From Perna viridis (lineage: Eukaryota): a stretch of DNA of 64,000 nt. Position 1 is the stretch's first letter; each line of letters begins with the position of its first letter. Shown here in pieces: positions 13,183-59,932 of this stretch. The stretch spans positions 39,308,001-39,372,000 of the forward strand of contig CM074514.1 of assembly GCA_037379345.1 (NCBI GenBank), given 5' to 3'. Below the pieces are notes generated by a model. That model ran no database searches. It had not been told where the DNA came from and was given only the letters and a program-made list of their open reading frames with translations. The position numbers and the translations under genes were made by a program.

Positions 13183-28725
<15,543 letters not shown>

Positions 28726-36189: not shown

Positions 36190-36405
36190 TATGCAAAAAA
36201 CTTCTGTCTGACCCCTTTGTTCTATTTTTAACGGCGGCTATGTTTTCCGTCTGATCGAAAATTCCCATAGCAGTTTTGAACAGAATACCCTAAAGAAACA
36301 TTCATACATGGTTCTGATTAGTCTGGTAGTTTCAGAGGAGAAAAGTTTTGAAAAACATTGTTATCGACGACGACGGCGGACTCCAAGTGATGGCAAAAGC
36401 TCACC
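36190..36405 (+). mobile_element. Helentron/HINE-like non-autonomous element fragment
   Basis: gtagtttcagaggagaa ... gacgacgacggcgga..caagtgatggcaaaagctcac, a pattern I associate with bivalve Helentron-derived repeats. Confidence 0.55.
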
Positions 36406-36659
36406 CCAAAATTACTAACCAACGGTAGTCTAAAATTGTCAAGGCTAGCATGTGTAAGAAAGACCTTGTATTGCTAAGTTCGATCGCTTCAGACTTAATA
36501 TTAGTTCCACTACCCCTCTCAGTGACTTTGGGATGTAGCTCAAAGCGTGCCTGACCCAACGTCTTCGGTTCAAAGGACAACGTCACGATCGTGCCAAGGG
36601 ATACAGCTTTCAGTTTCCATCGAAGTGAAAGCGAAATTTCTAGCTCCGGCTTGAAAATT

Positions 36660-36721
36660 ATGTATATGTTTTGTACACCTTTATTAAACGAACAAAAGCG
36701 CGCAAAGGAAGAAAATAAAAG
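36660..36721 (+). pseudogene. Orphan gene candidate exon A (MYMFCTPLLNEQKRAKEENK)
   Basis: Donor AG|GTATGT at 36722, phase 2; 5' boundary uncertain. Confidence 0.45.
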
Positions 36722-37067
36722 GTATGTCTCTTGTATCAAAATGTTTTTGCCGCTTAGTTATACATTAAATAAAAAATTCGCCCATTTTCCTAAAATTCTT
36801 TTGACATTCTCAGTGAGTCCTAGTTTAGAATTGCCAATAACAATGATAACAGACAAAAAATACATGTACGTCATTGTTTGGGATGAAAATACTATGTATA
36901 TCAAATATCTGTATAATATATCTTTCCTCTCTCGCAAATAAATTTCAAAAGATGTTTTAGCTACTCTTAATGTTATTGATATCAGGTTACAGAAATGTCG
37001 AACATAACACTCCATGGAATATACTACATGTACATGTACATAATTTTACTTTATACTTCTGAATCAG

Positions 37068-37135
37068 TGTATTGCTTACGAGCGAACAGCAAGTCTTAGA
37101 TTGTTTAGTGTTGAACAGGGAGCATCCGAGTGGTG
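37068..37135 (+). pseudogene. Orphan gene candidate exon B (VLLTSEQQVLDCLVLNREHPSG)
   Basis: Pyrimidine tract plus atcag acceptor, donor G|GTGAGT, phase 2/1, compatible with both neighbours. Confidence 0.5.
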
Positions 37136-37175
37136 GTGAGTATTAACCCCGTTTTATTGATACACTGCCTTGTCT

Positions 37176-37300
37176 CAGGCGGATCCAATTATACTCGAAA
37201 AGTTTGGTTGATTATACCGAAAAAGACTTGAAATCATTGGAGTGTTCCTCCTTTTGACCAATAGATGGTCCCGCTTTTCGGAATATCTGGATCCGCCACT
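37176..37300. mobile_element. Short MITE with GGCGGATCC/GGATCCGCC TIRs
   Basis: caggcggatcca ... tggatccgccactg. Confidence 0.6.
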
Positions 37301-37608
37301 GCCTGCCGAAATAAGTCTCGAACGCAAATTCGATATCAAATAACTACTGTAGTATAAGATATGTTTACAGTCCTCTAAGACGGCTTTCGTTATTGGAATT
37401 ATCGCCTCCTTATAGAATTGGATTGCGTTAATAGAATCATGGAATCAGTCGGAGACCAATGATTATTTTTATTCTTTCATTTCGCCTTGTTAGTGCATGT
37501 CGGTTCAAGTCGTTATTTACGTGCATTTATATTAACTGTTGGCTCTGTCACAGCTTAGTTATTGAATGAGAACTTATTAAATTCCTGTCGTATTGAAATG
37601 ACCTTCAG

Positions 37609-37770
37609 CTCCTGAAACCCACTATAATGAGGCCAACTTTTTAAACCCAATCACTATGACCCTAAATTTATATAATTCTGCAAATCAATCCAAAGTATTG
37701 GCCGATAATTTACGAAACACCCAAAGTGTGAAGGATAAGGAACAAAAATGCCCATACATGACCCGGCCCC
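37609..37770 (+). pseudogene. Orphan gene possible symmetric exon (APETHYNEANFLNPITM...CPYMTRP)
   Basis: Acceptor ccttcag, 54 open codons, phase 1/1, weak donor GTATCA. Confidence 0.35.
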
Positions 37771-38234
37771 GTATCAATTAATATGGATATTGTGAATTTT
37801 TTTTTGGTTTTTGCCTGTTGGCTTCTACATGTATATATGACTTTGAACGTGATGGAATTGTGGAAATTCATTCCCATATTTAAAAAATCTCCGGGCTCAA
37901 CTTATGTGTGACTATGCAGCCATTAACTTCAGATTTGTTTTTATTTCCCTTAATTAAAGGGCCAAATTTGCCCCCTTTGTGCACAATGCTTCAATCCTTA
38001 AGTACGACTTAACATTCATGCTAGTTACCAGGTTGTCCGAAGGGTGATTTTACTACTTCCGCCCACGCTTAACGTAACAATCGCTAAAACGTTGACATTC
38101 ACACTTTCCACGTCGTAATGTCTATGACCTACCTGTGGGCGGAAGTAGAATCAAAGTAGAATCAAAGGATAATTTACCGCCACCCACGCATACGTCATAA
38201 TTACTACAACATTAATTTTTGACGTTTTTGGACA

Positions 38235-39753
38235 AACAGGTAGAAACAAAATAAGACCTATACTGCTACCACACTCTCCAAAGAAGAGATAGTGGAAAAC
38301 CATAAATCTGTACTGTCCTCCTTCGGTCTCTCTACGATAAGTGTGATCTACCGTCCATGTACTGGATTCCTAAACTCCACAAAAATCGACACAAACAACG
38401 TCACATACCTGGATCTGCAAAATGTACCACTAAACCGCTTCCAAAACTTTTAACTTCTATACTCACAGCTGAGAAGGTGGTATTCAGTCCAACCACGACA
38501 CTTGTTACTCCCGTAGTGGTATTAGTTCAGTGTGGATCCTGAACAATTCGAAAGATCTTCTGGAAACCCTCAATTCAAGATTATTATTAGAATGCAATAA
38601 CATTGAAACCTACGATTTTTCAACTCCTTATATTTTTATTCTACATACTCAGTTAAAATCCCGAATCAAAAACATCATACATCGTTGTTACTCCAAAAAA
38701 GACGGTACACTTAGAGGTAGTGCTTGGTAGAGATTCTTCATACTTTGTAAAAACGATTTTAAATCATCTTCCAAATATACCGAAGAAGATATGTTTCGAA
38801 ATGCTAGAATCTTTTATCGACAACATATTTGTTCAGTGTGGTGGGCGCGCTTTTTCAACAAACGGTCGGCATTCCAATGGAAAAAAATGTGCTCCTCTAC
38901 TCGCTGAAATTCCTTTGCTCAAGTGATGCTGGTTTTATAGCTGATCTAATCCAAAGGAAGAAACATCGTTTAGCTAGACCCTTTGATCTCAGTTTCCGCT
39001 ATATAGATGACGTATTTTCGTTAAACAATCCTAGTTTCGATGATTTTATACTTTGCATCTACCCCAAAGAGATTGAGATAAAAGGTACTGCAGACACTAT
39101 GAAGTCAGCTTCATATTTTGACGTACACATAGAAATCGATGGTAAAGGAAAACTATTGACCAAACTATATGACAAACGCATGACTTTTCATTCCGTATTG
39201 TCAACTTCCATTTCATCTGCCTGTGGCAACATCCCATCAGCACCTGTGGATGAAGTTTTGATATCACAACTCATACGTTGTGCCAGAGCTTGCCGTAACT
39301 ATGCAGACTTTTATACCGCGCCAGACTTCTTACTTCTGGTACAGTGTGAAATTGCTACAAGATTGAAGTCTTCACTATAGAATTTAATTGTCGTCATCAT
39401 GAACTCGTGGATCGTTACGATGTATCCATCTGCACCGTGAGAACCGATTTGTTCAATGTGTCATACATGTAGCTTTCCTTTCTTTTTCCGTCTAACCTGG
39501 ACTTTTTATGAGCAGCTCTGTGGGTGTTTCTAGAAAAGCAGAGGACGCTTACCCTACCAGTGCACCTGATCCATGCTCCCAGTTAATTTTTAGTAGAGTC
39601 CGAGTTGCTCATATACTTTTGTTGCTTTGTACGTATTATGTTGATTATTTTATGTTCTTTGTTGTGTGTGTCAGTTTTCAATGTCTGGTCTTTGTCTGTG
39701 GATTACATATTGTTTTGATTTCATTTAGAATCGTGGTTCCCTTTACTACTCTT
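38235..39753 (+). mobile_element. 5'-truncated, frameshifted Penelope-like retroelement (RT, thumb and 3' tail), probably Naiad type
   Basis: YWIPKLHK, TYDFSTPY (motif A), QQTVGIPM (motif B), RYIDDV (motif C), TKLYDKR and SQLIRCARAC spread over several frames; no GIY-YIG domain after the thumb. Confidence 0.88.
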
Positions 39754-39849
39754 TCACGTAGTACGCGTGGGCGGAAATTGTAGCATGGGTGAAATAGGGT
39801 TTGTATTTATATCTATACTGTATAGCGTTGTAAATTTTATATAGTGCAT

Positions 39850-40111
39850 GTACAGATGAGATCAGTTCTAACCCTCTCACAAAACTGCCCTAGAACTGTC
39901 AGAAAAATAGTTCTATGATAGATTTAGAACAGTCCTAAAGCTCTTCGGACAACACTAGCAGTAGATCCGGCTCTACTAGTAGAACTGTTCTCGTAGGGCT
40001 GGCTTTGCTAGAACTGTCAGAAGAGCTGGCGTTAGAACTGTTCTATGACACTTTTAGAACCAAACTCTTCTGACAGTTCCTCTGAGAGGTTAGAACTGTT
40101 CTTATCTGTAC
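39850..40111. mobile_element. Palindromic MITE with ~29-bp TIRs and internal AGAACTGT repeats
   Basis: GTACAGATGAGATCAGTTCTAACCCTCTCA ... TGAGAGGTTAGAACTGTTCTTATCTGTAC. Confidence 0.8.
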
Positions 40112-40222
40112 GTATTGGTCCTGGCCTGCAACATGTTATTTTTAATAGTTAGGTTGGTTGTTTCATGAAATCCAGAGATCTATAATTCCATACAAGGGTG
40201 GGAGGAATCCATAGGTTAGTGC

Positions 40223-40333
40223 AAGAGTAATCAAGGGAACCAAAGTTATAGCGGTAATCAAAAGAATTTAATCCAGGGACAAAGACCAGACATGGAAAAC
40301 AGACATACACAACAAAGAACTTAAAGTAACTAA
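40223..40333 (-). mobile_element. Solo 3' tail fragment of the Penelope-like family, abutting a TTAA MITE
   Basis: aagagtaatcaagggaaccaaagttatagcggtaatc..., near-identical to 34878-34988. Confidence 0.87.
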
Positions 40334-40538
40334 GGAGGTAGACCTAGGTTAAGGGACTTAAATCTTGAAATCAGTGATATGTTTGTATCATAATCAATTT
40401 CACCAAAACTTTCAATCTTTCATTTGAAGCAGAATAAAATCAAACCAAGTTACATAGATGCTTACAAGTGATTGATGTAAAAAGCTGAATACAAACGTTC
40501 CAGTGATTTTAAAGAGTTATGTCCCCTAACCTACCGCC
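40334..40538. mobile_element. MITE family A copy, opposite orientation
   Basis: GGAGGTAGACCTAGG...CTACCGCC|TTAA; right TIR partly deleted. Confidence 0.85.
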
Positions 40539-40619
40539 TTAAGTTCCTGTTGAAGAAAATCAAGGTTAAGGTTACTTTTGATTCAGCCTTAGGAAAATTA
40601 TTTTGCCCATTCCTCTTAA

Positions 40620-40989
40620 GAACCATCATGTGTAAGAATCAGGCAATAGGTAGCACTTAATTTTTTCTCAATTTGGTCTTTTTTGTTTCAAATATATTTA
40701 ATATATCTAACGAAAAGCTTTTTTAAATTTATCAATAAGCATCTGGGACATAATTATTATTTGATTGCTTATAAAGGGAAAAAGTGGGGAAAACTTTTTC
40801 CGCCATTTTCCACAGTGCATTTGAAATAAATTTGACCTATCATTATCTTAAAAAAGGCAAATTATTTGATGGTAATTTTGAAAGGTCATTGGGTATAAAT
40901 ACCTGGATAAAGCAATAAAATCTCTGCGTTTTTGTCCTGTTGTGCCACAGCTTATACACATTTTGCCTGATTCTCACACAGAGAAGTAC
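40620..40989. mobile_element. MITE family C copy, inverted, just upstream of orphan exon C
   Basis: Reverse complement of the 1120 copy; TTAA flanks. Confidence 0.85.
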
Positions 40990-41021
40990 TTAAATCTGTA
41001 AAACATTGTGTCTATTAATAG

Positions 41022-41223
41022 AGCGAATTGAGTTTTCCATCAATACCCCAGACACCTGGAAACATGATCTAATCCAGCCCACAGTGGGCAATGCCTTCAG
41101 AATCCTGCGCGACATTCCAATATGCGAGGAAAATAAAGAAAGAATTTCCGAAAAACAGCTACACGAGATATTTGAGGCCAGGTTAAAGGATTTGAGGTTC
41201 CAAGACTACCTTCTACGTATCGA
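41022..41223 (+). pseudogene. Orphan gene exon C (...TWKHDLIQPTVGNAFRILRDIP...DYLLRIE)
   Basis: Open frame; phase-1 acceptors possible at 41022 or 41052; donor GA|GTAAGT at 41224, phase 2, matches the acceptor at 41485. Confidence 0.6.
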
Positions 41224-41423
41224 GTAAGTCTAAAAATAGTGCACAAATTATTGAAGACATCACTTTTACAAAACTTGTTCGACGCGCTTAGGTACTCGAG
41301 AACAATGTCTTTGATATATTTTCATGTGTTCATACATATTGTCCATATCAAAAAGGTCCACTGATCGCAATTTATTTTAATTACAATTTTAAAGACCATC
41401 CTATACTGCTCAGTTAAATTGTT

Positions 41424-41446
41424 ACACACACACACACACACACACA
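41424..41446. repeat. (AC)n microsatellite in orphan-gene intron
   Basis: acacacacacacacacacacaca. Confidence 0.9.
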
Positions 41447-41484
41447 TATATGAACTCTATACGTGTCTTTTATTATTCCTTTAG

Positions 41485-44400
41485 GAACGGAAGAGCCGTT
41501 GGAGAAGATGAAGAAGAGATAGATGTTGATTCAAACGGAACAAAAACGGAATCTAAAATATGTGGCAGGCCAAGTCCCCAGCCAGACTTAGTGCCGTTAG
41601 CAAAAACCCATAATTCGGGTACAATTGTTACAAAGTACATGCCGCAAAACAACAGGGTAATGGCTAGTAGTCCTGAAAAGTTCACATTTGACGATTCTGG
41701 TCGTTTCATCGTACCAAAGAGTAAATGGCAACTTCGGGCAGAGTCTACATGCTTAGCAAAAGAAATGGCTTTTATGAAAAAGTACATGCCAGCTTACTAT
41801 CGAGAAACGACAATCTTACGTCAAACTGGGCTGCCTTCAGATCTCATCAACATCATGTTCAGAAAAATACCCCTCCTCCTGAATATGTAAGTGATCTATA
41901 CAAAGAAATGTTCTCTTCACCATTTATAATGAAGTTCAGGAGAGGGGGTACAATGGTCGCAAAACACCCAAGACCTATGATGGCGCATTGCATCATTGAG
42001 GAGGAGAAGCGACGCTTTAATGTAGCACTATATCTAGGAGTAACAGAAATTCTTCCGGTCTTGAAAGAAGAACACCACTTGGAGCGTTTCGCAAGGTTAC
42101 CAGTAAATAAATCATCAACTGGTTTGGATGACGTCAAAGCTGACTATTCAATGGTTGATTTATTTGTGTGCGATGCGGGAGGCCAACTCAACTCTTCTGG
42201 AATGCTTAACCTATCATTTGAGCTGCGACTCGGAAAGCAATATGACATGGAAGAGAAGGTAAGATCTTTAAAAGAACTCCATAAAGAGCTCCAAACGTAC
42301 CCGGAACTCACTGAAGAGTCAAGCACCAGTGGAGTTAGCCAGACCATCTGGACAACAATGAGATATAGAAAACCACTTATCATTAAAGGCAGAAGATTCA
42401 ACCGCCGGAAACATTTTCGTCTAAAGAAACGCGTCATTGACCAAGGATTGCCACAGAAAGAAAAATATACAGCAATACGAGAACTCCAAGATAACATGGA
42501 TCGGCATATAGAACTTACCGAGACAGATCTATATTTCCCGAGAATCTAATAGTTACCCATCTGTTCTAAATCAAAATGGCGTCACTTAGCAACCAATGAA
42601 ATTTTGTATACATGGACCTTGTGACGGAAAAGCCGAGTGTATTGATATCAGAATTAATAGAATGGCACTTCATCTTTTCCTAGAGGCAGTTAAAGGTTCG
42701 GAAACGAAGGTAAATTCTCTTGAACACACCAAAGTCCGCGTCGACATCAACTCGAAAGGTTCCGAAAAGAATTTTGAATTCGCAATTCACACTACAGTCA
42801 ATAATGACGACATCATGAAAGAAGCTGCTGAAAAACCAAAATTACCAAAACACACTGCTGTCATTATTGATACCAACACGAAAGAGAAACCATCGTTTTC
42901 TAAAAAGTGGAACTCTCTCAAGGAGAAACTTAAACCAAATTTGAAAATAAACCTGAACGGAAGGGCTTTCCAGCACAGAAATATCGATGTCAACAGTGGT
43001 AGCGATGATGTTGTCAATATGACAGATGGAGATATTGTGAAATTAAACGACTGTGTAATTCCTACAGAAAATCAAAACCTCCAGGATACTGAAGATGTTC
43101 AAGCTACAATGGATGATGATGAGCCACAATTCGTCGACAGAAAAAAACACCGAGTTAAATGCAGATCTTGGCCTTCAGCAGGGAATGGGTGACATAGCTT
43201 TACAAAACGAACCAGGACCAACTGATGATTTGGGAAAGGCTGTCGAAAGGTTGCCGTTATCGCAGTCCGACTTACGAAAGTCCGATAATGTTGGAGCAGC
43301 TTTTGATAATAGGTTCGATGCTCCTAAAAATCGGTCTGTAGAAGCACCGGATGGAAACAATAGCTATAATGCTAGAAGAGAGAAATCTGGGCACATGTTT
43401 AATACAGATAAAGACCAGTTGTATTGTGCAACGGGCATTCAAATGCATGACCCGAAGCCGTCAGGTCTTCAGGAGATGTTCGAGATACATCAGAGTAATC
43501 TAACGCATTCAAAGCTGGATTTGTCAACAACGTTCGATACTGATAATATCGGATATGGCAGACCCATCATTAGAGCTCGGACTCCTGTAAATGGCAAAGA
43601 TACAACTTCACAAAGTAAAAAGATAATTAAAACTGAAATTGTTGTCCCAGTAGGAAATAGAAGTAACCTTACCACTGAATTCACATCCAGTTATCCAGTT
43701 CCGACAGAATGGCTCGATTCTTATGAATCGAGCGAAAGCGAAGCTGAAGAAGAGGTTTATTATTCTCAGGAACAACACAAGCGTTACGAAGACTTCGAGA
43801 CGGGACTGGAAATTTTACAGGCATCAATGGACATTCAGAAGCAAGAGGAAGATTATTACAGCTGTGGGTATCGTCCATTGTTCGCTTTTTATATGAAGAT
43901 GAGGAAGAAGAATTGGAAAGTGAAGATGATAAAGCCCTAGATATGAGGCAATCTGATGAAACCACAGAAATTGAAAAGGTCATCGAGATATATCATGCTG
44001 ACGCTGCCCAGAAAGTCTTCGGTGCAAATGCAGGGAAGTATTATGCAAATTTTGATAATGCACAGTGTGTTAGCGGAAGGTCAGTTGAAGCTCCACGAGT
44101 CCAATTTTGTAGAAAAATGACAATTGAAGTTACAAATAGTAATTACATTAGCGAAATATCAATGGAAGCGGTTAGAGGTCGACATACTACTGAAAGCTTT
44201 GCTGAAAGTACTAGGGATCAGTATGCTTGCGAAATATCGATGGAGGCCAGAACAGGCCAATGTGCGGAAGAAACTGCAATGGAAGCAACACCAGGCAAAT
44301 ATACTAGCCAAATCGCAATGAATGATACAGGAGGTCAGTATGCTTTAAGTACACCCAACTCTAATGAAGCAATAAGAGGAAAATATTCAACTGATTATGA

Positions 44401-46400
44401 AATTAACACGGTTGAAAGAATAAATCAGAGAATCATGAATGAAAAATCTCTAGAAGAAAATTCTTGTAGCAATGTTGATGGTGACACCATTGTAAATGGA
44501 AATGTGCAGACGACTGTCTCGAAGAAAGCGAGTGCATGGGAAATCACGTTATACGGCTCTCCAACACTACGCGAAATCAACAAGGAATCAGATAGCGATA
44601 AAGCACTGGGTGAATCGAAGAGAAAACGAAAAAAACAGTCGACTCCCGATTTGTTGCACGGGACTGATTTGGAGAAATATGCTTGGAAAATCAAGGGTAA
44701 CTCTAATCAAACCTACTCGTGATAGCAAAATACCTATCAGAGTTCATGTAGGCTGCCACCGAACTACCAGGATTGATAACAATGTACCGGAGACACTCGG
44801 CATCACAGAAATTTATCACAATACAACATACAAACCAGAAAGTCGTATTCCTGTTCGCCGTGATGGCAATGTATGGCGAACATTGAATGGAAAATCGATA
44901 GCCTCGCCTATTAAGGCAAAATCAGGAAGCAAATTGCCCATCAGAATTCAAGCAAGCAGAGATAGAATGACCATGTATAACAAGACCAAATGTAGAACAG
45001 TCAGCGGAAGAAATTATGCGACACGGCAAAGAAAATCATGTATTAGAATGTCGAAATGGTAACATATTGCAAGGAGAGCAAAGAAAATTGGAAACCTCGT
45101 CTAAAATGCCCACTATAGGGAGCAAAATACCGGTCAGAGTTACAGTAAGTTACCATGAATCCGACAATGCTGCTGTAAGATCTGAGTTCTACATCAAGTA
45201 GTAGTAGTGCGAGTAAGCTACCATATAGGAATGGAAAAAAATGGCGTGAGTCCGAAGCAAAAATACAAAGAACAGAGACAGAGTATGGCACCGTGCAACA
45301 CTTTTACCAATATCAGTGCACAGTGATAAAACAGTGATAACCTCCGGATAGACTAGCTGTGAGGCAAAATGTAAAAATAGACGATCAAATGGCTGGTACT
45401 ACACATAAAAAAACAAGAGAGCCGATACTGAGCCAGAAAATCAAATCGGCGAAAAAGGTGAACGGAAGAGCCGAAACTCAACTTCAAAAAGACAAAAAGC
45501 CCCCATGTCTCAGGCCAATAGAGAACGAATCCGCTAGTATGGCGAATGAAAGGGCTGAAACACCACATCACAGAGACAAAAAGTCTTCACGTTTTAGACC
45601 GATAGAGATAGAATCTACTGGAATGATGAATAAAAGGACTAATACTTCCCATCACAGAGACCGGGGGTCTCAAAGTCCCAGTCTAATCCACGCCGATTCT
45701 AAAAGAATGATGAATCATAAGGCTGATGGTTCATGTCACACATCGAGAGAGTCTTCAGATCGTAATCTCACGGATGACGAATATACGCGTATGATGAGTA
45801 AAAGGGCCAATGATTCAAACCACAGAACCATAGAGTCTCCAAGACTCAGTTCCACAAAGCATGATTCTACAGTAATGGGGGACAAGTCAAGATTTCAACC
45901 GATTGAAAACAGAAATTATTCGCCACACGATGATACAAAATGCTTTTGGAAAATTTCAACTCGACCTCCATCAAGTACAAATCAACCAAAAATGATATTA
46001 AGTCACTCCTCATGTGAAACTGACTTTATCATACCCCAACCAATTAAAGCAAGGATCGTGTTAAGTCAGCGGCACCTCGTTCTCGCTTCCCTCCTGTGAG
46101 AAATGCGGGCAATCTCAGGAACATTGTCAGCTAGATTGGGGATGAAGGAGAACGATCACTAGCCGATAGATCTACAATGTCTCCTTTAACTGGACACATC
46201 AATGACATTTGTGAATCACCTCGCCCCATGTCGGCCCATGGAACGATAAAAATAACGCCCATACACAACGGTGAAAGAATCAACCGGTCAGCATCAAGTT
46301 TTGAAAAACTGCCCCCTTTTTGATTCGAACAATAGAAAGCAGTGACGAAAAGTCATTAAACGAAACATCCAATTGATAAGAAAACACTTTTAAAATTGCC
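41485..46400 (+). pseudogene. Orphan gene giant terminal exon with multiple frameshifts and stops
   Basis: Acceptor ttcctttag; consecutive overlapping ORFs; 13-aa, ~62-68-aa and ~28-aa internal repeats; 3' end approximate. Confidence 0.75.
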
Positions 46401-46959
46401 TATGATCTCAACTATTTCGACATGGCAATTGTTTCATTTTAATCAACAGAAATTTCAAGCATCATCCTGTAAAAATATTTGGTTTTGGTCTTAGATACCA
46501 GTAATTATAAATATACTTTGAAGATTTCGTCGTATTGTTGGTTAGGATTTCTTCTTTTTTTTTTTGTTTAGTTTTTAAGTTCATTTTAAACTATCACCAA
46601 AACCATACAATCCCATAACCTAATTATAAAAGGCTGTTGATTTTGTATTTATCAGAAAATATCAGACTCGTTTATACCTTAACCAGGGAGTTTTTATAAA
46701 GTTCCTGCCTTAACATGTTAACAACTAAACTAAATCGTAAGCAATATGTACATATATCACCTTTGTTACATTGTCAAGCAGGAGAATTGATCGTGAACAG
46801 GTCGATAACGGATGTTATGTATTGCAGCTAGATCGTGAATGAGGGTGTTAAAGATCATGAGGAACAATTTTGTCGCTTTTTCAATAATTTCAGCAAAACA
46901 CCAAATTTAAGCGAAAACCCGAGGATGTTTGTCAAAGTTGTAACCATTTGCAAAGCTTA

Positions 46960-48259
46960 TAGTCACTGTTCTGAACGAGCCCGGTTTAGATTTTTTTGGA
47001 CCTGGTTTCGATGACACAATATGGCGGACCAGCAATTCGTCGAAATATATTTATTTTTTATATCTTTCTCGTATGGCCTTACGCGTATTTGTAACTTTTA
47101 AATATAGAAATGTATAGACTGTCATAACATTCATTTTTATTGACAGTATACAAAAATATCTTCGATCTCCACAAAACGTCGATTAAAATATTGTTTATTG
47201 TGAAAAAAAAAAACGAAATCAAGCAGAAGATCGAGCCTTCTCTCTGTCATATAATCGTATAAGCGCCCGTATTTTAGAATGAAACCGTTGTCTATATCAA
47301 CTTTTTTCAGGCAAAATCATATCCGTATGAAAAAAATAACAATTGACTAAATATAACTGCAGATGTAGAGTGTTTACAAAATAGCAAAACCCTGGTTTAG
47401 ATTATCAATCTTTCAGTGACCTTGAGCACTTTTCATTCGAAAAGTTCCCGGTTTAGATGACAGATAAAAGAAGGACACGGTTTAGATCTTAGTTCAAATC
47501 CATGAATTTAATATATGTTAATAAATATGTAATTTTATATTGACCCTGTTATAGGTTTGAGGTCTGTCATATTGGCGAGGTGGTCGTACTGGTCCTGAGG
47601 CATCGCCGAGGGCCAATACGGCTGTCGAGGCCAATATAATTGACCGAAACCTGTAACAGGGCCAATATGAAATTACACATTGGCCCTGGTTTGATCCATA
47701 TTGGCCCTCTTTTTTCATATTGGCCCCGTATAGATGCCCGGATTGAATTCACATCAGTTAGTCAGTTCTTGACATATTTTAACGTATTTTGGGTAGTTGG
47801 CTAATTAATCGACATATTAATCAGGTCCGCAATGATCTAAACCGGGTCTTTTTCTGTAAACACCATAAATCTGCAGTTATATTTAGTTAACTGTTAATTT
47901 TTCATACGGGAATGTTTTTGCCTGAATATAATTATTATAGACAACGGTCTCATTCCCAAATACAGAAGGTTTTATGATTAGGCTCGACCCACCGCTTGAT
48001 TTCAGTTTTTTTTAAATTTTTTTCACTATAAACAAGATTTCAAACGATGTTCTCTTCAGATTAAAGGTAAAGTCGTCCGTATACGTGTATTGTTAATAAA
48101 AATAGAATATTATTGCTGTATGTGCTTTACAATTTTAAGCAGCTACAATTATGCATAAGGTCGTAACAGAAAGATATAAAAGACACCAGCCTTTCGTAAA
48201 AGTGCTCGACCGCCTAGTCCAAAACAATCTAAACCGGGCTCGTTTAGGACAGCGATAGT
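46960..48259. mobile_element. Foldback-like element with ~450-500-bp diverged inverted arms and a central palindrome
   Basis: AACGAGCCCGGTTTAGATT (46975) mirrored by AATCTAAACCGGGCTCGTT (48226); internal blocks mirrored; central palindrome about 47525-47680. Confidence 0.78.
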
Positions 48260-48967
48260 GTAATGCTTCATTTCGATAAACCAATATTGAGAAAATGTAT
48301 AAGGCATCACTTCGCTCTATATATTTTTACATGTTATATCACAACTTCGATTTTTCCCATTTCTTAACCATTTTAACTTAAACAATCTAGTTTTTGTCTC
48401 AATAACATTGAACATTTTGGATTATTCATTGTTGATCAAATGTGTTTACTTGTAATTTAATATAAAGTAAAGTGTTGCCTTTCGAAGTTTCTGTACAATG
48501 GTTTATGAAAATGAAGTTCGCGCGACTCTAATTCTTTTGCAAATGCTAATCACTTTGACAGCCATTCTAGTTGTGGTTGCAGATGTTGACATTGTTGAAA
48601 AAGTGATAAATTTGTTGTTCACGAACCTTAGCATCCCCATTCACGAGCAAGTTGCAAGTCTCGAATCAGTTATCGACCTGTTCACGAACATTCTTCTCCC
48701 TTGGCAGTGTGAAGACTGTTTTAGACTGATTAATTCACTAATATTGTTGTTATGTTTTATATTTCATTCCAGTAAATACATGTACTTGTAAATTTTCTCA
48801 CTTCTAATGGATAATTTTACCTTTTACATGAAATTGTCAATAACGTGGCTATTTCAAATACAATTTAAGATTTCATTATAAAACTTTAGTTAGTATTTTT
48901 TCCTTCAAGAACTTTAATAAATATATATACAAACATCTAAGTTGCCATTCCTAGATGACACAGTTTC

Positions 48968-49695
48968 AATAATGTATTTTCAAAATGTTGCCACTCCTTG
49001 ATAATGTACATTAAAATGTTGCCACTCCTTAATGATGTACTTTCAAAATGTTGCCACTCTTTCATAAACTTTCAAAATGTGGCCATTCCTTGATAATGTA
49101 CTTTAAAATGTTGCCACTCCTTGATAATGTACATTAAAATGTTGCCACTCCTTAATGATGTACTTTCAAAATGTTGCCACTCTTTGATAATGTACTTTAA
49201 AATGTTACCACTCCTTGATAATGTATTTTCAAAATGTTGCCACTCCTTGATAATGTACTGTAAAATGTGGCCACTCCCTGATAATGTATTTTCAAAATGT
49301 TGTCACTCCTTGATAATGTACTTTCAAAATGTTGCCACTCTTTGATAATGTACTTTAAAATGTTACCACTCCTTGATAGTGTACTTTCAAAATGTTGCCA
49401 CTCTTTGATAATGTACTTTAAAATATTACCACTCCTTGATAATGTATTTTCAAAATGTTGCCACTCCTTGATAATGTACTTACAAAATGTTGCCACTCCT
49501 TGATAATGTAATTTAAAATGTTGCCACTCCTTGATAATGTACTTTCAAAATGTTGCCACTCTTTGATGAACTTTCAAAATGTGGCCATTCCTTGATAATG
49601 TACTTTAAAATGTTGCCACTCCTTGATAATGTACTTTCAAAATGTTGCCAGTCATTGATAATGTACTTTCAACATATTGTCATTCCTTGATGACA
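48968..49695. repeat. 31/32-bp minisatellite, ~23 units
   Basis: Unit TTT(C)AAAATGTTGCCACTCCTTGATAATGTAC, head-to-tail without spacers. Confidence 0.95.
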
Positions 49696-52050
49696 CTATT
49701 TTATTGTTATTATTAATAAAATAATTGCATTTTCTTAAATGGGTTGTTCCAAAGTATTTTATGAGGAAACAAGTAAAATTGTGGTTTACATATTCCAGAA
49801 GTTTACTTTGACACAGAAACAAATGCTTACGATAAAAATGAAAATCAATTGGAAACAGAGACAAAATGCATCCATGAATAACTAAAAGAAAAACAAAACA
49901 CACAACAACAAATGTACAAACAATATGAACTGATAAGAAGAAACGTTTATTTGCCTGAATGCAGCCTTTTATCAGATGTGTCTTGATTTTCTCCTCTTGA
50001 CTTCCATTAAAATGCTGATGTCGACTGTGTTGACTGGACAACCAAAAGAAAGGTTAACAAAGGACTTATTGAGAAATCTAGTAATTGACATGAAAATGAT
50101 TTTAGTGATCATTTGGTAAATATTAAATTTGAAAAATTTGAAGTTACGACTAAGTAAACTATTTTTTTCATGATTTCTTCTATTTGTCAGATTTTTAGAG
50201 TAATCCTAATCACCCTAGATCTGAAGCCTGATAAGAATTTCCTTAAACTGAAAAAGCAATGCTTACTAACTTGACAGAAGTAACAGAAAAAATGGGTATC
50301 CCCGTGTCCAAGTATTAAAAAATGGAAAGGTCCATGTTTTGCTACATGAAACCTCCAATCCAATAATAGGAGGTGCTCAATTGGAAGATGTATGGGGGGT
50401 GGGGCTTCCCTATCATGCACCTACTAATGCCAGGAAAATTCACTATAGGCGTAATGGAATTAACATGAACATGTAAAGTTAATTTATATTGGCAAAACAT
50501 CAATAAAATGCAGAATATAACCCAAAGGGGCTTCAAATCAAAGTGCTGATAGCACTGGCGGTTTTTGGTTCTTGTGAAAATTGTAACATGAGCAAACTTA
50601 CAAAGATTATTTGATGTTAAATAAAATTGCATATTAAATACTATTAAGAACTGTCTTATAATATTTATAAAGGCTAAAATCCACTAATTCCACTTCCCAT
50701 AGGCTTCTATGCTAATTTCACAATATTCAATGGCTTCTCTGGACTTTACCTTAACTTTAACCTGCAGAGGACTATATATCAGCATGATTCTACATATGCC
50801 AGCTCACAATCCTCAGAATGGCATGTGGGGTTAGCAGATTTGCAGTGCAGTACTGGTCACCGGAAGTGAAGTGTCTATAAATAGCATGGGAAATCCCAGT
50901 CTTTTCTTCACAAGATAGGGGTATATTTAGAAATCATTATTGATATTAGGCTTCACATCACAAGAAGCAAAATGCACCTATAAAATGTACAGAAATGTTT
51001 TTCCTTTCAGAAACTGTTTAAATTTTTTAAATGAGATGAGAACTTTTTTCACAGCACTATGAGGAACAGGGGTAATTTCTGCGTAGGACTATTTTTGCGT
51101 ACGTTCCAAATGCTCATTGGTTGAATTGGTGGTCTGTAACCTAAACTGAACGTCAATCCATATTACTGTACCAACTTCACACACATTTACATTTTATTCC
51201 ATTTCACCTTTTTCCCATTTTTACAAATCTATCCAAAAGTTAATGACATTAACATTCTGAAGGTTTATTTATAGAAAAGTTATACTTAAATAAAACCAAT
51301 ATCAGCTTAAGAAAATAATTTTCTTCACACAAGATTTTCAAAAACTAGACTTTTATAAATTTGAATTTTCCCGCCAATTTACTTGGTTAAATCACTGCTC
51401 TTCACTTCCTGTTTATAAAATGTAAAATATTAATGATAGGATTGTTATAAGTGTGTTAAAATGAAAATACTTAACAAATTTTATGCTTCCAGACACATTA
51501 CTGCAAGAATGCAAATTTATTACTACATATCATTCAAGGCCAAAAAGGAGTCCCTTGCATCTTGAGTTGAAATGAAGACTAGATTTTCATTTTATTTTCA
51601 GAGATAATAGAATATTACTGTGCTGATTAATTGCAAGATACATATTTCCTGGTTATAAAAGAGGTATTGAATGATATGAAAAGAATAACATTTGGATTTA
51701 TTTTTGTGTAGTGTTCAGAAATGGTAGGGAAGTACCAGTGATACCAGCAACATAAGGTATTTTGATACATCAAAAACCTAAAAACAATAAACAAGTTCAC
51801 CCTTGTAATGCAGATGGTTTGTGCGGTCTATTTTGAGGCTTCGGCCCGGGGATGATCATTTAATCAACCAGTAAGTTTGTAACTTCAACTAGCATAACAA
51901 CCAGCTCCATTCCCTGAAGTTAACTTCTTTTTTTTTAATTTGTTTTTTTTTTTCACTGTTTTTTTTTCTGCTATAACCGTTTCATTGTAGGGAGAAACTG
52001 GACACCTTAAGCGCTGCTTTGTACCAAGTCCTTTGATAGTCCATGACACA

Positions 52051-59567: not shown

Positions 59568-59704
59568 TTATCTTTCAGTTGGCATGCCTTCAATAGCAGT
59601 AAGTACTGATTTAGCACTTTCTCGAACTTTTTCATCTTTATGCTCTTGTAAATTTTTTACTAGGTCAGACAGTCCTGAGCTCATAATTTCATCCCGTAAA
59701 TTTT
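59568..59704 (-). CDS. RAP1GDS1: RAP1GDS1/SmgGDS terminal coding exon
   Basis: Acceptor ttttccag, phase 1 matches the previous exon. Encodes ENLRDEIMSSGLSDLVKNLQEHKDEKVRESAKSVLTAIEGMPTER*, aligning to the recalled human ECLHKEVQDLAFLDVVSKLRSHENKSVAQQA. The rest of the gene lies beyond the window. Confidence 0.82.
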
Positions 59705-59932
59705 CTGGAAAATGAAAAAGACATGGTCAACTCCTGCATGTGAATGTTCTTTATATCTATGTGCATCCAATTTCATGTTTCACCAAAATCTCATTGGTTC
59801 CTAGATTTTAAAAAAAAATATTGAAAACTTTGAATATTTTCCTTTAAAATGAAATGTTTCACATATTCCTGTAACTGTAATAATACTGACAAATTGGCCA
59901 TGTAATTAATAGGAATCCATTTAAGGAATTAT

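Follow-up and report, generated by a model that had tools for sequence, protein, structure and literature searches.

A probable duplicated pseudogene in Perna viridis and its five-copy gene family, predicted to encode a disordered EB1-binding microtubule-tip protein

The window, a stretch of 64,000 nucleotides from Perna viridis (C4:39308001-39372000 of a 723-Mb, 46-contig genome), carries on its + strand a large broken gene copy, which we call copy A; searches of the same genome found four paralogs of it, copies B, C, D and E. The locus is dominated by a big exon, 41485-46335, which the original prediction had described as tiled by + strand open reading frames. This is confirmed: between 41485 and 46330, stop-free runs of at least 130 sum to 1,665 codons on the + strand compared with 133 on the - strand, and the same statistic in 300 Markov-shuffled sequences has a mean of 13 and a maximum of 283 codons. 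Read through its lesions, the gene reaches the predicted length of about 1,700 codons. The small exons proposed at 36660-36721, 37068-37135 and 41022/41052-41223 have the claimed donors (GTATGT, GTGAGT and GTAAGT) and splice in frame into 41485, whereas an optional exon at 37609-37770 was not supported. The parts of the gene are the following.

36557..36721, + strand: first exon, ATG at 36660, with a GTATGT donor that A, C and D have in common; identity 79% with D and 76% with C; exon start uncertain.
37068..37135, + strand: second exon; identity with copy B is 97%, and 80-88% in the intron on either side; the peptide can still be aligned with that of copy D.
37609..37770, + strand: possible exon, in frame, not supported; weak donor, 90% identity to B against 88% in the adjoining intron.
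41052..41223, + strand: internal exon, alternative acceptor at 41022, GTAAGT donor; in frame; present only in copies A and B, with a 5-base insertion in B.
41485..43193, + strand: module X, the N-terminal ~570 codons of the big exon; frameshifts near 41872, 42543 and 43150, stop at 42587; absent from copy D.
43194..46335, + strand: module Y, the disorder-prone C-terminal ~1,050 codons; of 987 codons aligned with the frame that is open in copy D, 547 are identical.
49660..49790, + strand: conserved 3' element with AATAAA at 49715, a likely polyadenylation site; common to copies A, C, D and E, and 705 bases after the stop in D.

Module Y of copy A has frameshifts near 43888, 44636, 44988, 45184, 45233, 45303, 45340 and 46050, stops at 46132 and 46321, and an in-frame 180-base deletion at 43330; the ancestral stop is 46333-46335, from which the gene likely continues to the conserved AATAAA. 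Module X may contain a small intron (41887-41939). The splice phase of exon 1 varies by copy, being 2 in A, 0 in C and, in this frame, 1 in D.

The paralogs lie at four further loci, and the five loci together are a lower bound of the copy number.

Copy B, C4:39.62 Mb, inverted: 92% DNA identity; ends after window position 44803.
Copy C, C4:24.34 Mb: 75-77% DNA identity.
Copy D, C1:25053902-25057279, - strand: 70-74% DNA identity; 1,126 stop-free codons.
Copy E, C4:38.71 Mb: a relic, ~65% identity.

The lone orphan originally proposed is thus one of five duplicates. The first exon with its GTATGT donor recurs in A, C and D, the second exon in A, B and D, and the AATAAA element in A, C, D and E; because exon 1, exon 2, intron remnants and the 3' flank are shared, the copies are DNA-level duplicates and not retrocopies. 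Four of the five are broken. Copy D, whose protein is 55% identical, is the only long open member; its frame ends at the family stop, matches only module Y (from window 43194) and lacks the N-terminal ~600 residues. Module X is present in A, B, C and E and broken in all of them, so that no paralog has it open, and D shows a clean acceptor where X joins Y in the other copies. Copies E and D stand at about the same distance from A, which weakly suggests that X is old and was lost by D. Copy C carries a tandem duplication of the X/Y junction at C4:24343500-24344350 (window 43129-43496 twice), and a single-exon rhodopsin-family receptor (7tm_1, E 3e-33) lies on the strand of copy D, about 3 kb upstream of it.

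One very large exon in several dispersed copies could also be a decayed transposon or an endogenous viral reading frame. We hold this to be very improbable: there are at least five copies, at a DNA depth like that of single-copy DNA and ~10,000-fold below true intron repeats, and introns, first exon and polyadenylation element travel along with them. Searches gave no Pfam match over cut-off, no PHROG match and no viral contig, and no transposase, reverse transcriptase or viral domain was found. No match of this kind, named beforehand as what would refute the gene, turned up.

The coding sequence of copy A holds 14 lesions (11 frameshifts and three stops), more than the 8-10 originally counted. 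Compared with D, module Y has eight frameshifts and two stops per 987 aligned codons in A, three and two per 544 in B, and five and 18 per 724 in C; module X of copy A adds three frameshifts and one stop. The lesions at 42543, 42587 and 43888 are common to A and B, with the ancestral state at 42587 seen in E and C. The break near 41872 is common to C but not to B, and could instead represent a 53-72-base intron starting from a conserved GTAAGT.

These lesions are real and not assembly errors. DNA contigs of four sequencing runs were aligned on 36300-46700; run X1 is the best match for the sequence and may be the source of the assembly, and runs X2 and X6 come from two studies other than that of X1. 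Contigs of X2 and X6 bridge eight of the 11 frameshifts free of gaps (41872, 43150, 44636, 44988, 45184, 45303, 45340 and 46050), and both 3' stops are covered by an X2 contig that differs only at five other listed places, so that two of the three stops recur as well. Frame-breaking lesions therefore occur in sequencing data of other studies, and the mis-assembly originally offered as an alternative to gene death did not hold up. To read the breaks as errors in an intact gene is scarcely credible: several do fall in A- or T-runs, and the extra base at 45233 is missing in X2 and X6, but besides the eight recurring frameshifts two more and one stop are common to paralog B. Frameshifts 42543 and 43888 were bridged only by X1 among the 32 pieces listed. 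X2 has an additional extra base behind 45987; because of this and the absence of the 45233 frameshift from X2 and X6, the decay is still segregating, and beyond the indels listed, other lesions may vary too.

We then estimated the ratio of non-synonymous to synonymous substitution rates (omega) under a codon model with free branches, masking all stop codons and three codons around each gap or frameshift. For module Y the model returned omega values of 0.48 on the D branch (p 4.5e-7), 0.42 on the A/B stem (p 0.005), 0.41 on the branch of A (p 0.011), 1.47 on that of B and 0.76 on that of C; restricted to the stretch covered by all four copies, A had 0.51 (p 0.052) and the A/B stem 0.54 (p 0.06). 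Comparing A with D directly in module Y gave 0.41 (p 5e-16), with segments from 0.64 down to 0.18, lowest at the C-terminus. Module X had an omega of 0.50 over A, B and C (p 3.5e-6) but of 0.99 and 1.04 in two shifted frames; the C-plus-stem branch gave 0.40 (p 9e-7) with controls near 1, and A (0.79) and B (0.71) did not differ from 1. Both modules were thus once under purifying selection and hence coding, in agreement with the prediction of a gene that had been alive: on older branches omega is ~0.4-0.5, computed on paralogs within the genome.

The age of the decay was estimated as neutral time, with the opportunity for stops taken from D and the rate of frameshifts from the introns of A and B (19 for 164 substitutions); the figures are rough. 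The 14 lesions of A correspond to ~0.02 substitutions per site, set beside an A-B synonymous distance of ~0.10; for copy D the neutral time lies below 0.006 (0.023 from stops alone). We infer that copy A lost its function recently, as had been proposed.

Three RNA-seq runs from a single study (unknown tissue; 19-25% of each run was read) showed zero depth over the big exon in 12, 14 and 12 of 14 bins and less than 1 in the remaining ones, and the exon-1 bin was at zero. Spliced reads at the exon junctions, which the original prediction had proposed to map, did not appear in these runs among the joints listed (15 of 49), and the run search for the sequence listed no RNA run. This agrees with silence of the copy in the samples used, and has no bearing on gonad or larva. 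A few read pairs do fall at 42199-42892 in two of the three runs, and they would suit a copy that still makes a truncated or re-spliced module X product through hidden introns (41887-41939 and 42253-42589). Copies A, B and C all retain a GTAAGT donor at 41887, with an in-phase AG downstream, and over the 3.3 kb shared by both copies A has only ~2 private lesions while B has ~9 (p 0.03). However, the acceptors for such introns are weak, the omega of A in module X does not differ from 1, the exon-1 bin has no depth and none of the listed joints is an exon junction; we consider this product quite improbable.

Module Y begins with an acidic tract, which is followed by the 13-residue repeats (six), a basic region with six SxIP/SxLP-type motifs, the 28-residue repeats and finally a tail that is conserved.

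44150..44392, + strand: six 13-residue repeats; period 13/26 here and in copy D.
44637..45230, + strand: six SxIP/SxLP motifs (SRLP, SKIP, SRIP, SKLP, SKIP, SKLP) when breaks are read through; the same six positions in D read SRVP, SRIP, SCIP, SKLP, SKLP, SKLP.
45460..45910, + strand: 28-residue Ser-Pro-rich repeats, seven in copy D and fewer here; an 84-base tandem repeat at 45490-45661.
45870..46335, + strand: the part in which conservation is highest (75-87% identity with D across residues 961-1040, omega 0.18); copy D has four [FL]PP[IV] motifs here.

The 13- and 28-residue periodicities noted originally are the best periods of their regions and were reached by none of 500 shuffles, and the SxIP repeats are likewise confirmed. 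Passages of three papers describe the docking signal for EB1 as S/T-x-I/L-P in disordered regions with positively charged flanks (PMC4365484, PMC12695022, PMC3967968). Copy D has five strict S/T-x-I/L-P motifs where 1.1 are expected, a number reached in 54 of 10,000 shuffles (p 0.005); four of the five have basic, acid-free flanks (p 0.001, by a rule of our own: no D or E from -1 to +7, and K or R nearby). The serine, the aliphatic residue and the proline are kept at six of six motif positions between A and D, against a background identity of 55%, and at four of six in the long-dead copy C, with conservation judged among paralogs only. Copy D is disorder-prone by composition (FoldIndex -0.12, 22% order-promoting residues), and the 28-residue repeats of its module Y contain 12 Ser/Thr-Pro sites. 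The genome has two EB1-domain genes, C1:31092703 and C1:32016059, ~0.9 Mb apart, the second with a divergent EB-homology exon. On these motif and composition data we lean towards module Y having encoded an EB-binding protein.

Together, we think it likely that copy A is a duplicated pseudogene, broken in 14 places, and that its family of five copies probably coded for a largely disordered protein, predicted to bind EB1 at the ends of growing microtubules by way of six tandem SxIP/SxLP motifs. Copy A would be the last full-length (X plus Y) member, having lost its function recently, and copy D would be alive as a shorter form. The Ser-Pro-rich 28-residue repeats and basic flanks may serve to adjust binding to microtubules or to EB through phosphorylation, as happens in other proteins of the SxIP type, and expression may be limited to a tissue or stage outside the sampled ones, such as gonad or larva. 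By itself copy A would be an ordinary pseudogene; the interest lies in the family and in whether D lives. The family would show how fast, in a single bivalve lineage, a large gene family can arise, diversify and decay while variants that break the frame are still segregating, and D would be an unannotated candidate EB1 partner with six tandem motifs.

Several observations weigh against this interpretation. The own-branch omega of copy A spans 0.41-0.79, where a duplicated pseudogene should be near 1: the copy looks less decayed than a dead gene should over all of Y (0.41) and in the part of Y common to all copies (0.51, p 0.052), and its 0.79 in X is not significant. Its private changes are 17 synonymous and 30 non-synonymous (p 0.07), versus nine and 37 in B, and for all this it shares three lesions with B. 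No transcript of any copy was seen, with depth taken on copy A in RNA runs of one study and unknown tissue; SxIP is a four-letter motif that also arises by chance; and splicing into the best acceptor of copy D runs into a stop, whichever the frame, ahead of the long frame. Gene conversion from a dead B into a still working A would explain shared lesions with few private ones, although chance could do so too. Windows around the shared lesions were not unusually identical between A and B (rank 0.14-0.69). The longest stretch of unbroken identity measured 131, at the margin of the null distribution, whose 95th percentile is 129.

The stop behind the strong acceptor of D means that D needs a downstream start (its first ATG is codon 36) or one of the weaker acceptors, which are open, or else has a one-base lesion or error. 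The whole family could then be dead, with D a pseudogene of very recent date, inactivated at its 5' end, and the gene completely and recently lost. Just inside the acceptor D lacks two bases that A and C have, the phase of its exon 1 is out of step, module X is gone from it, and its protein is not among the hits from 1.84 billion representatives, though fragments of A and C are. On the other side, D has neither stop nor frameshift in 1,126 codons, the in-frame ATG and open acceptors exist, and both 5' discrepancies fall in A-runs, where assemblies err; we regard the loss of the whole family as unlikely. An equally doubtful elaboration of the duplicated-pseudogene interpretation is a lineage-private microtubule-tip scaffold family going extinct, in which A was the last full-length copy, stayed under selection after B died and was then hit by lesions of B through conversion, while the truncated D survives on another chromosome and X has a fold without a known relative. 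A germline or ciliary role, from the fast evolution and the duplication pattern, would be a guess.

The N-terminal part, for which no family could originally be assigned, remains without one: Pfam and PHROGs gave nothing over a cut-off for module X or module Y. Module X has a more ordered composition than Y, but its single-sequence fold gave no usable model (mean predicted local distance difference test score 33); none of 629 candidates was confirmed among longer proteins, and one of 92 among near-length proteins, a 90% identical fragment. For the copy D protein, none of 3,178 candidates was confirmed. HMMER against the 1.84 billion representatives returned five hits, four of them reading-frame fragments matching copies A or C on short contigs; the fifth, a low-complexity Candida cell-wall protein, was rejected. 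The ESM Atlas gave no usable match for D or module X, and none of 37 pattern matches in metagenome contigs or 17 in viral contigs was confirmed. The predicted lineage restriction is thus borne out, no relative outside this genome having been found in the protein, ESM Atlas, metagenome and viral searches, where the coverage of bivalve proteomes was not controlled for and had no positive control. No description of the family showed up among the paper listings searched, and it appears undescribed; a duplicated pseudogene of a fast-evolving SxIP protein family is of a known kind.

The predicted position of the gene between ZMIZ and RAP1GDS1 was confirmed by matches on both sides. To the left, zf-MIZ scores over its cut-off at window 24893-25543 and two exons match the GBD-like domain of ZMIZ1/2; to the right, two exons just beyond the window match a solved RAP1GDS1 structure (E 8e-7 and 0.003), and the last exon, 59574-59726, is armadillo-like, with a second in-window exon giving no match. 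Various repeats occur in the window.

38251..39756, + strand: decayed retrotransposon, presumably Penelope-like, in the intron of copy A only; copy B is contiguous across the place; very high depth in DNA runs; a related copy gives a weak RVT_1 hit (E 0.002).
40223-40333: very abundant ~110-base repeat, which like the 38251-39756 relic collects RNA reads from other copies.
46768-48710: a ~2-kb fold-back element in the likely 3' untranslated region, built of long inverted repeats nested in one another (arms of up to 83 bases, 77-90% complementary).
48969-49691: 32-base minisatellite of 23 copies; copy C has about two units at the same place.
20052-20258: 48-base tandem repeat, 4.3 copies, in a ZMIZ intron.

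Duplicated, non-processed pseudogenes occur in birth-and-death gene families, which the present family resembles: its copies are segmental and include introns, and beside one with an open frame there are several broken ones of differing age. It differs in that truncation has befallen the very copy that is open, no full-length form seems to survive in this assembly and no outgroup relative was found. A second comparison is with SMYLE_N (PF18615), of the short myomegalin-like EB1-binding proteins, which matched weakly (E 0.014) where one frame of the window has its SxLP motifs. At 15.6 bits this match falls short of the cut-off of 25, and it was not seen with copy D; it is a resemblance at the level of the motif and not membership. 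A third comparison is with the SxIP-motif plus-end tracking proteins MACF, APC and SKAP. Our family has no sequence homology to any of them, and no coiled coil, GAR, motor or CAP-Gly domain was found in it. As portrayed in two of the papers (PMC12695022, PMC4365484), these proteins carry the same S/T-x-I/L-P in a disordered, basic, Ser/Pro-rich setting, which is present here as six motifs in tandem with phosphorylatable Ser-Pro sites nearby.

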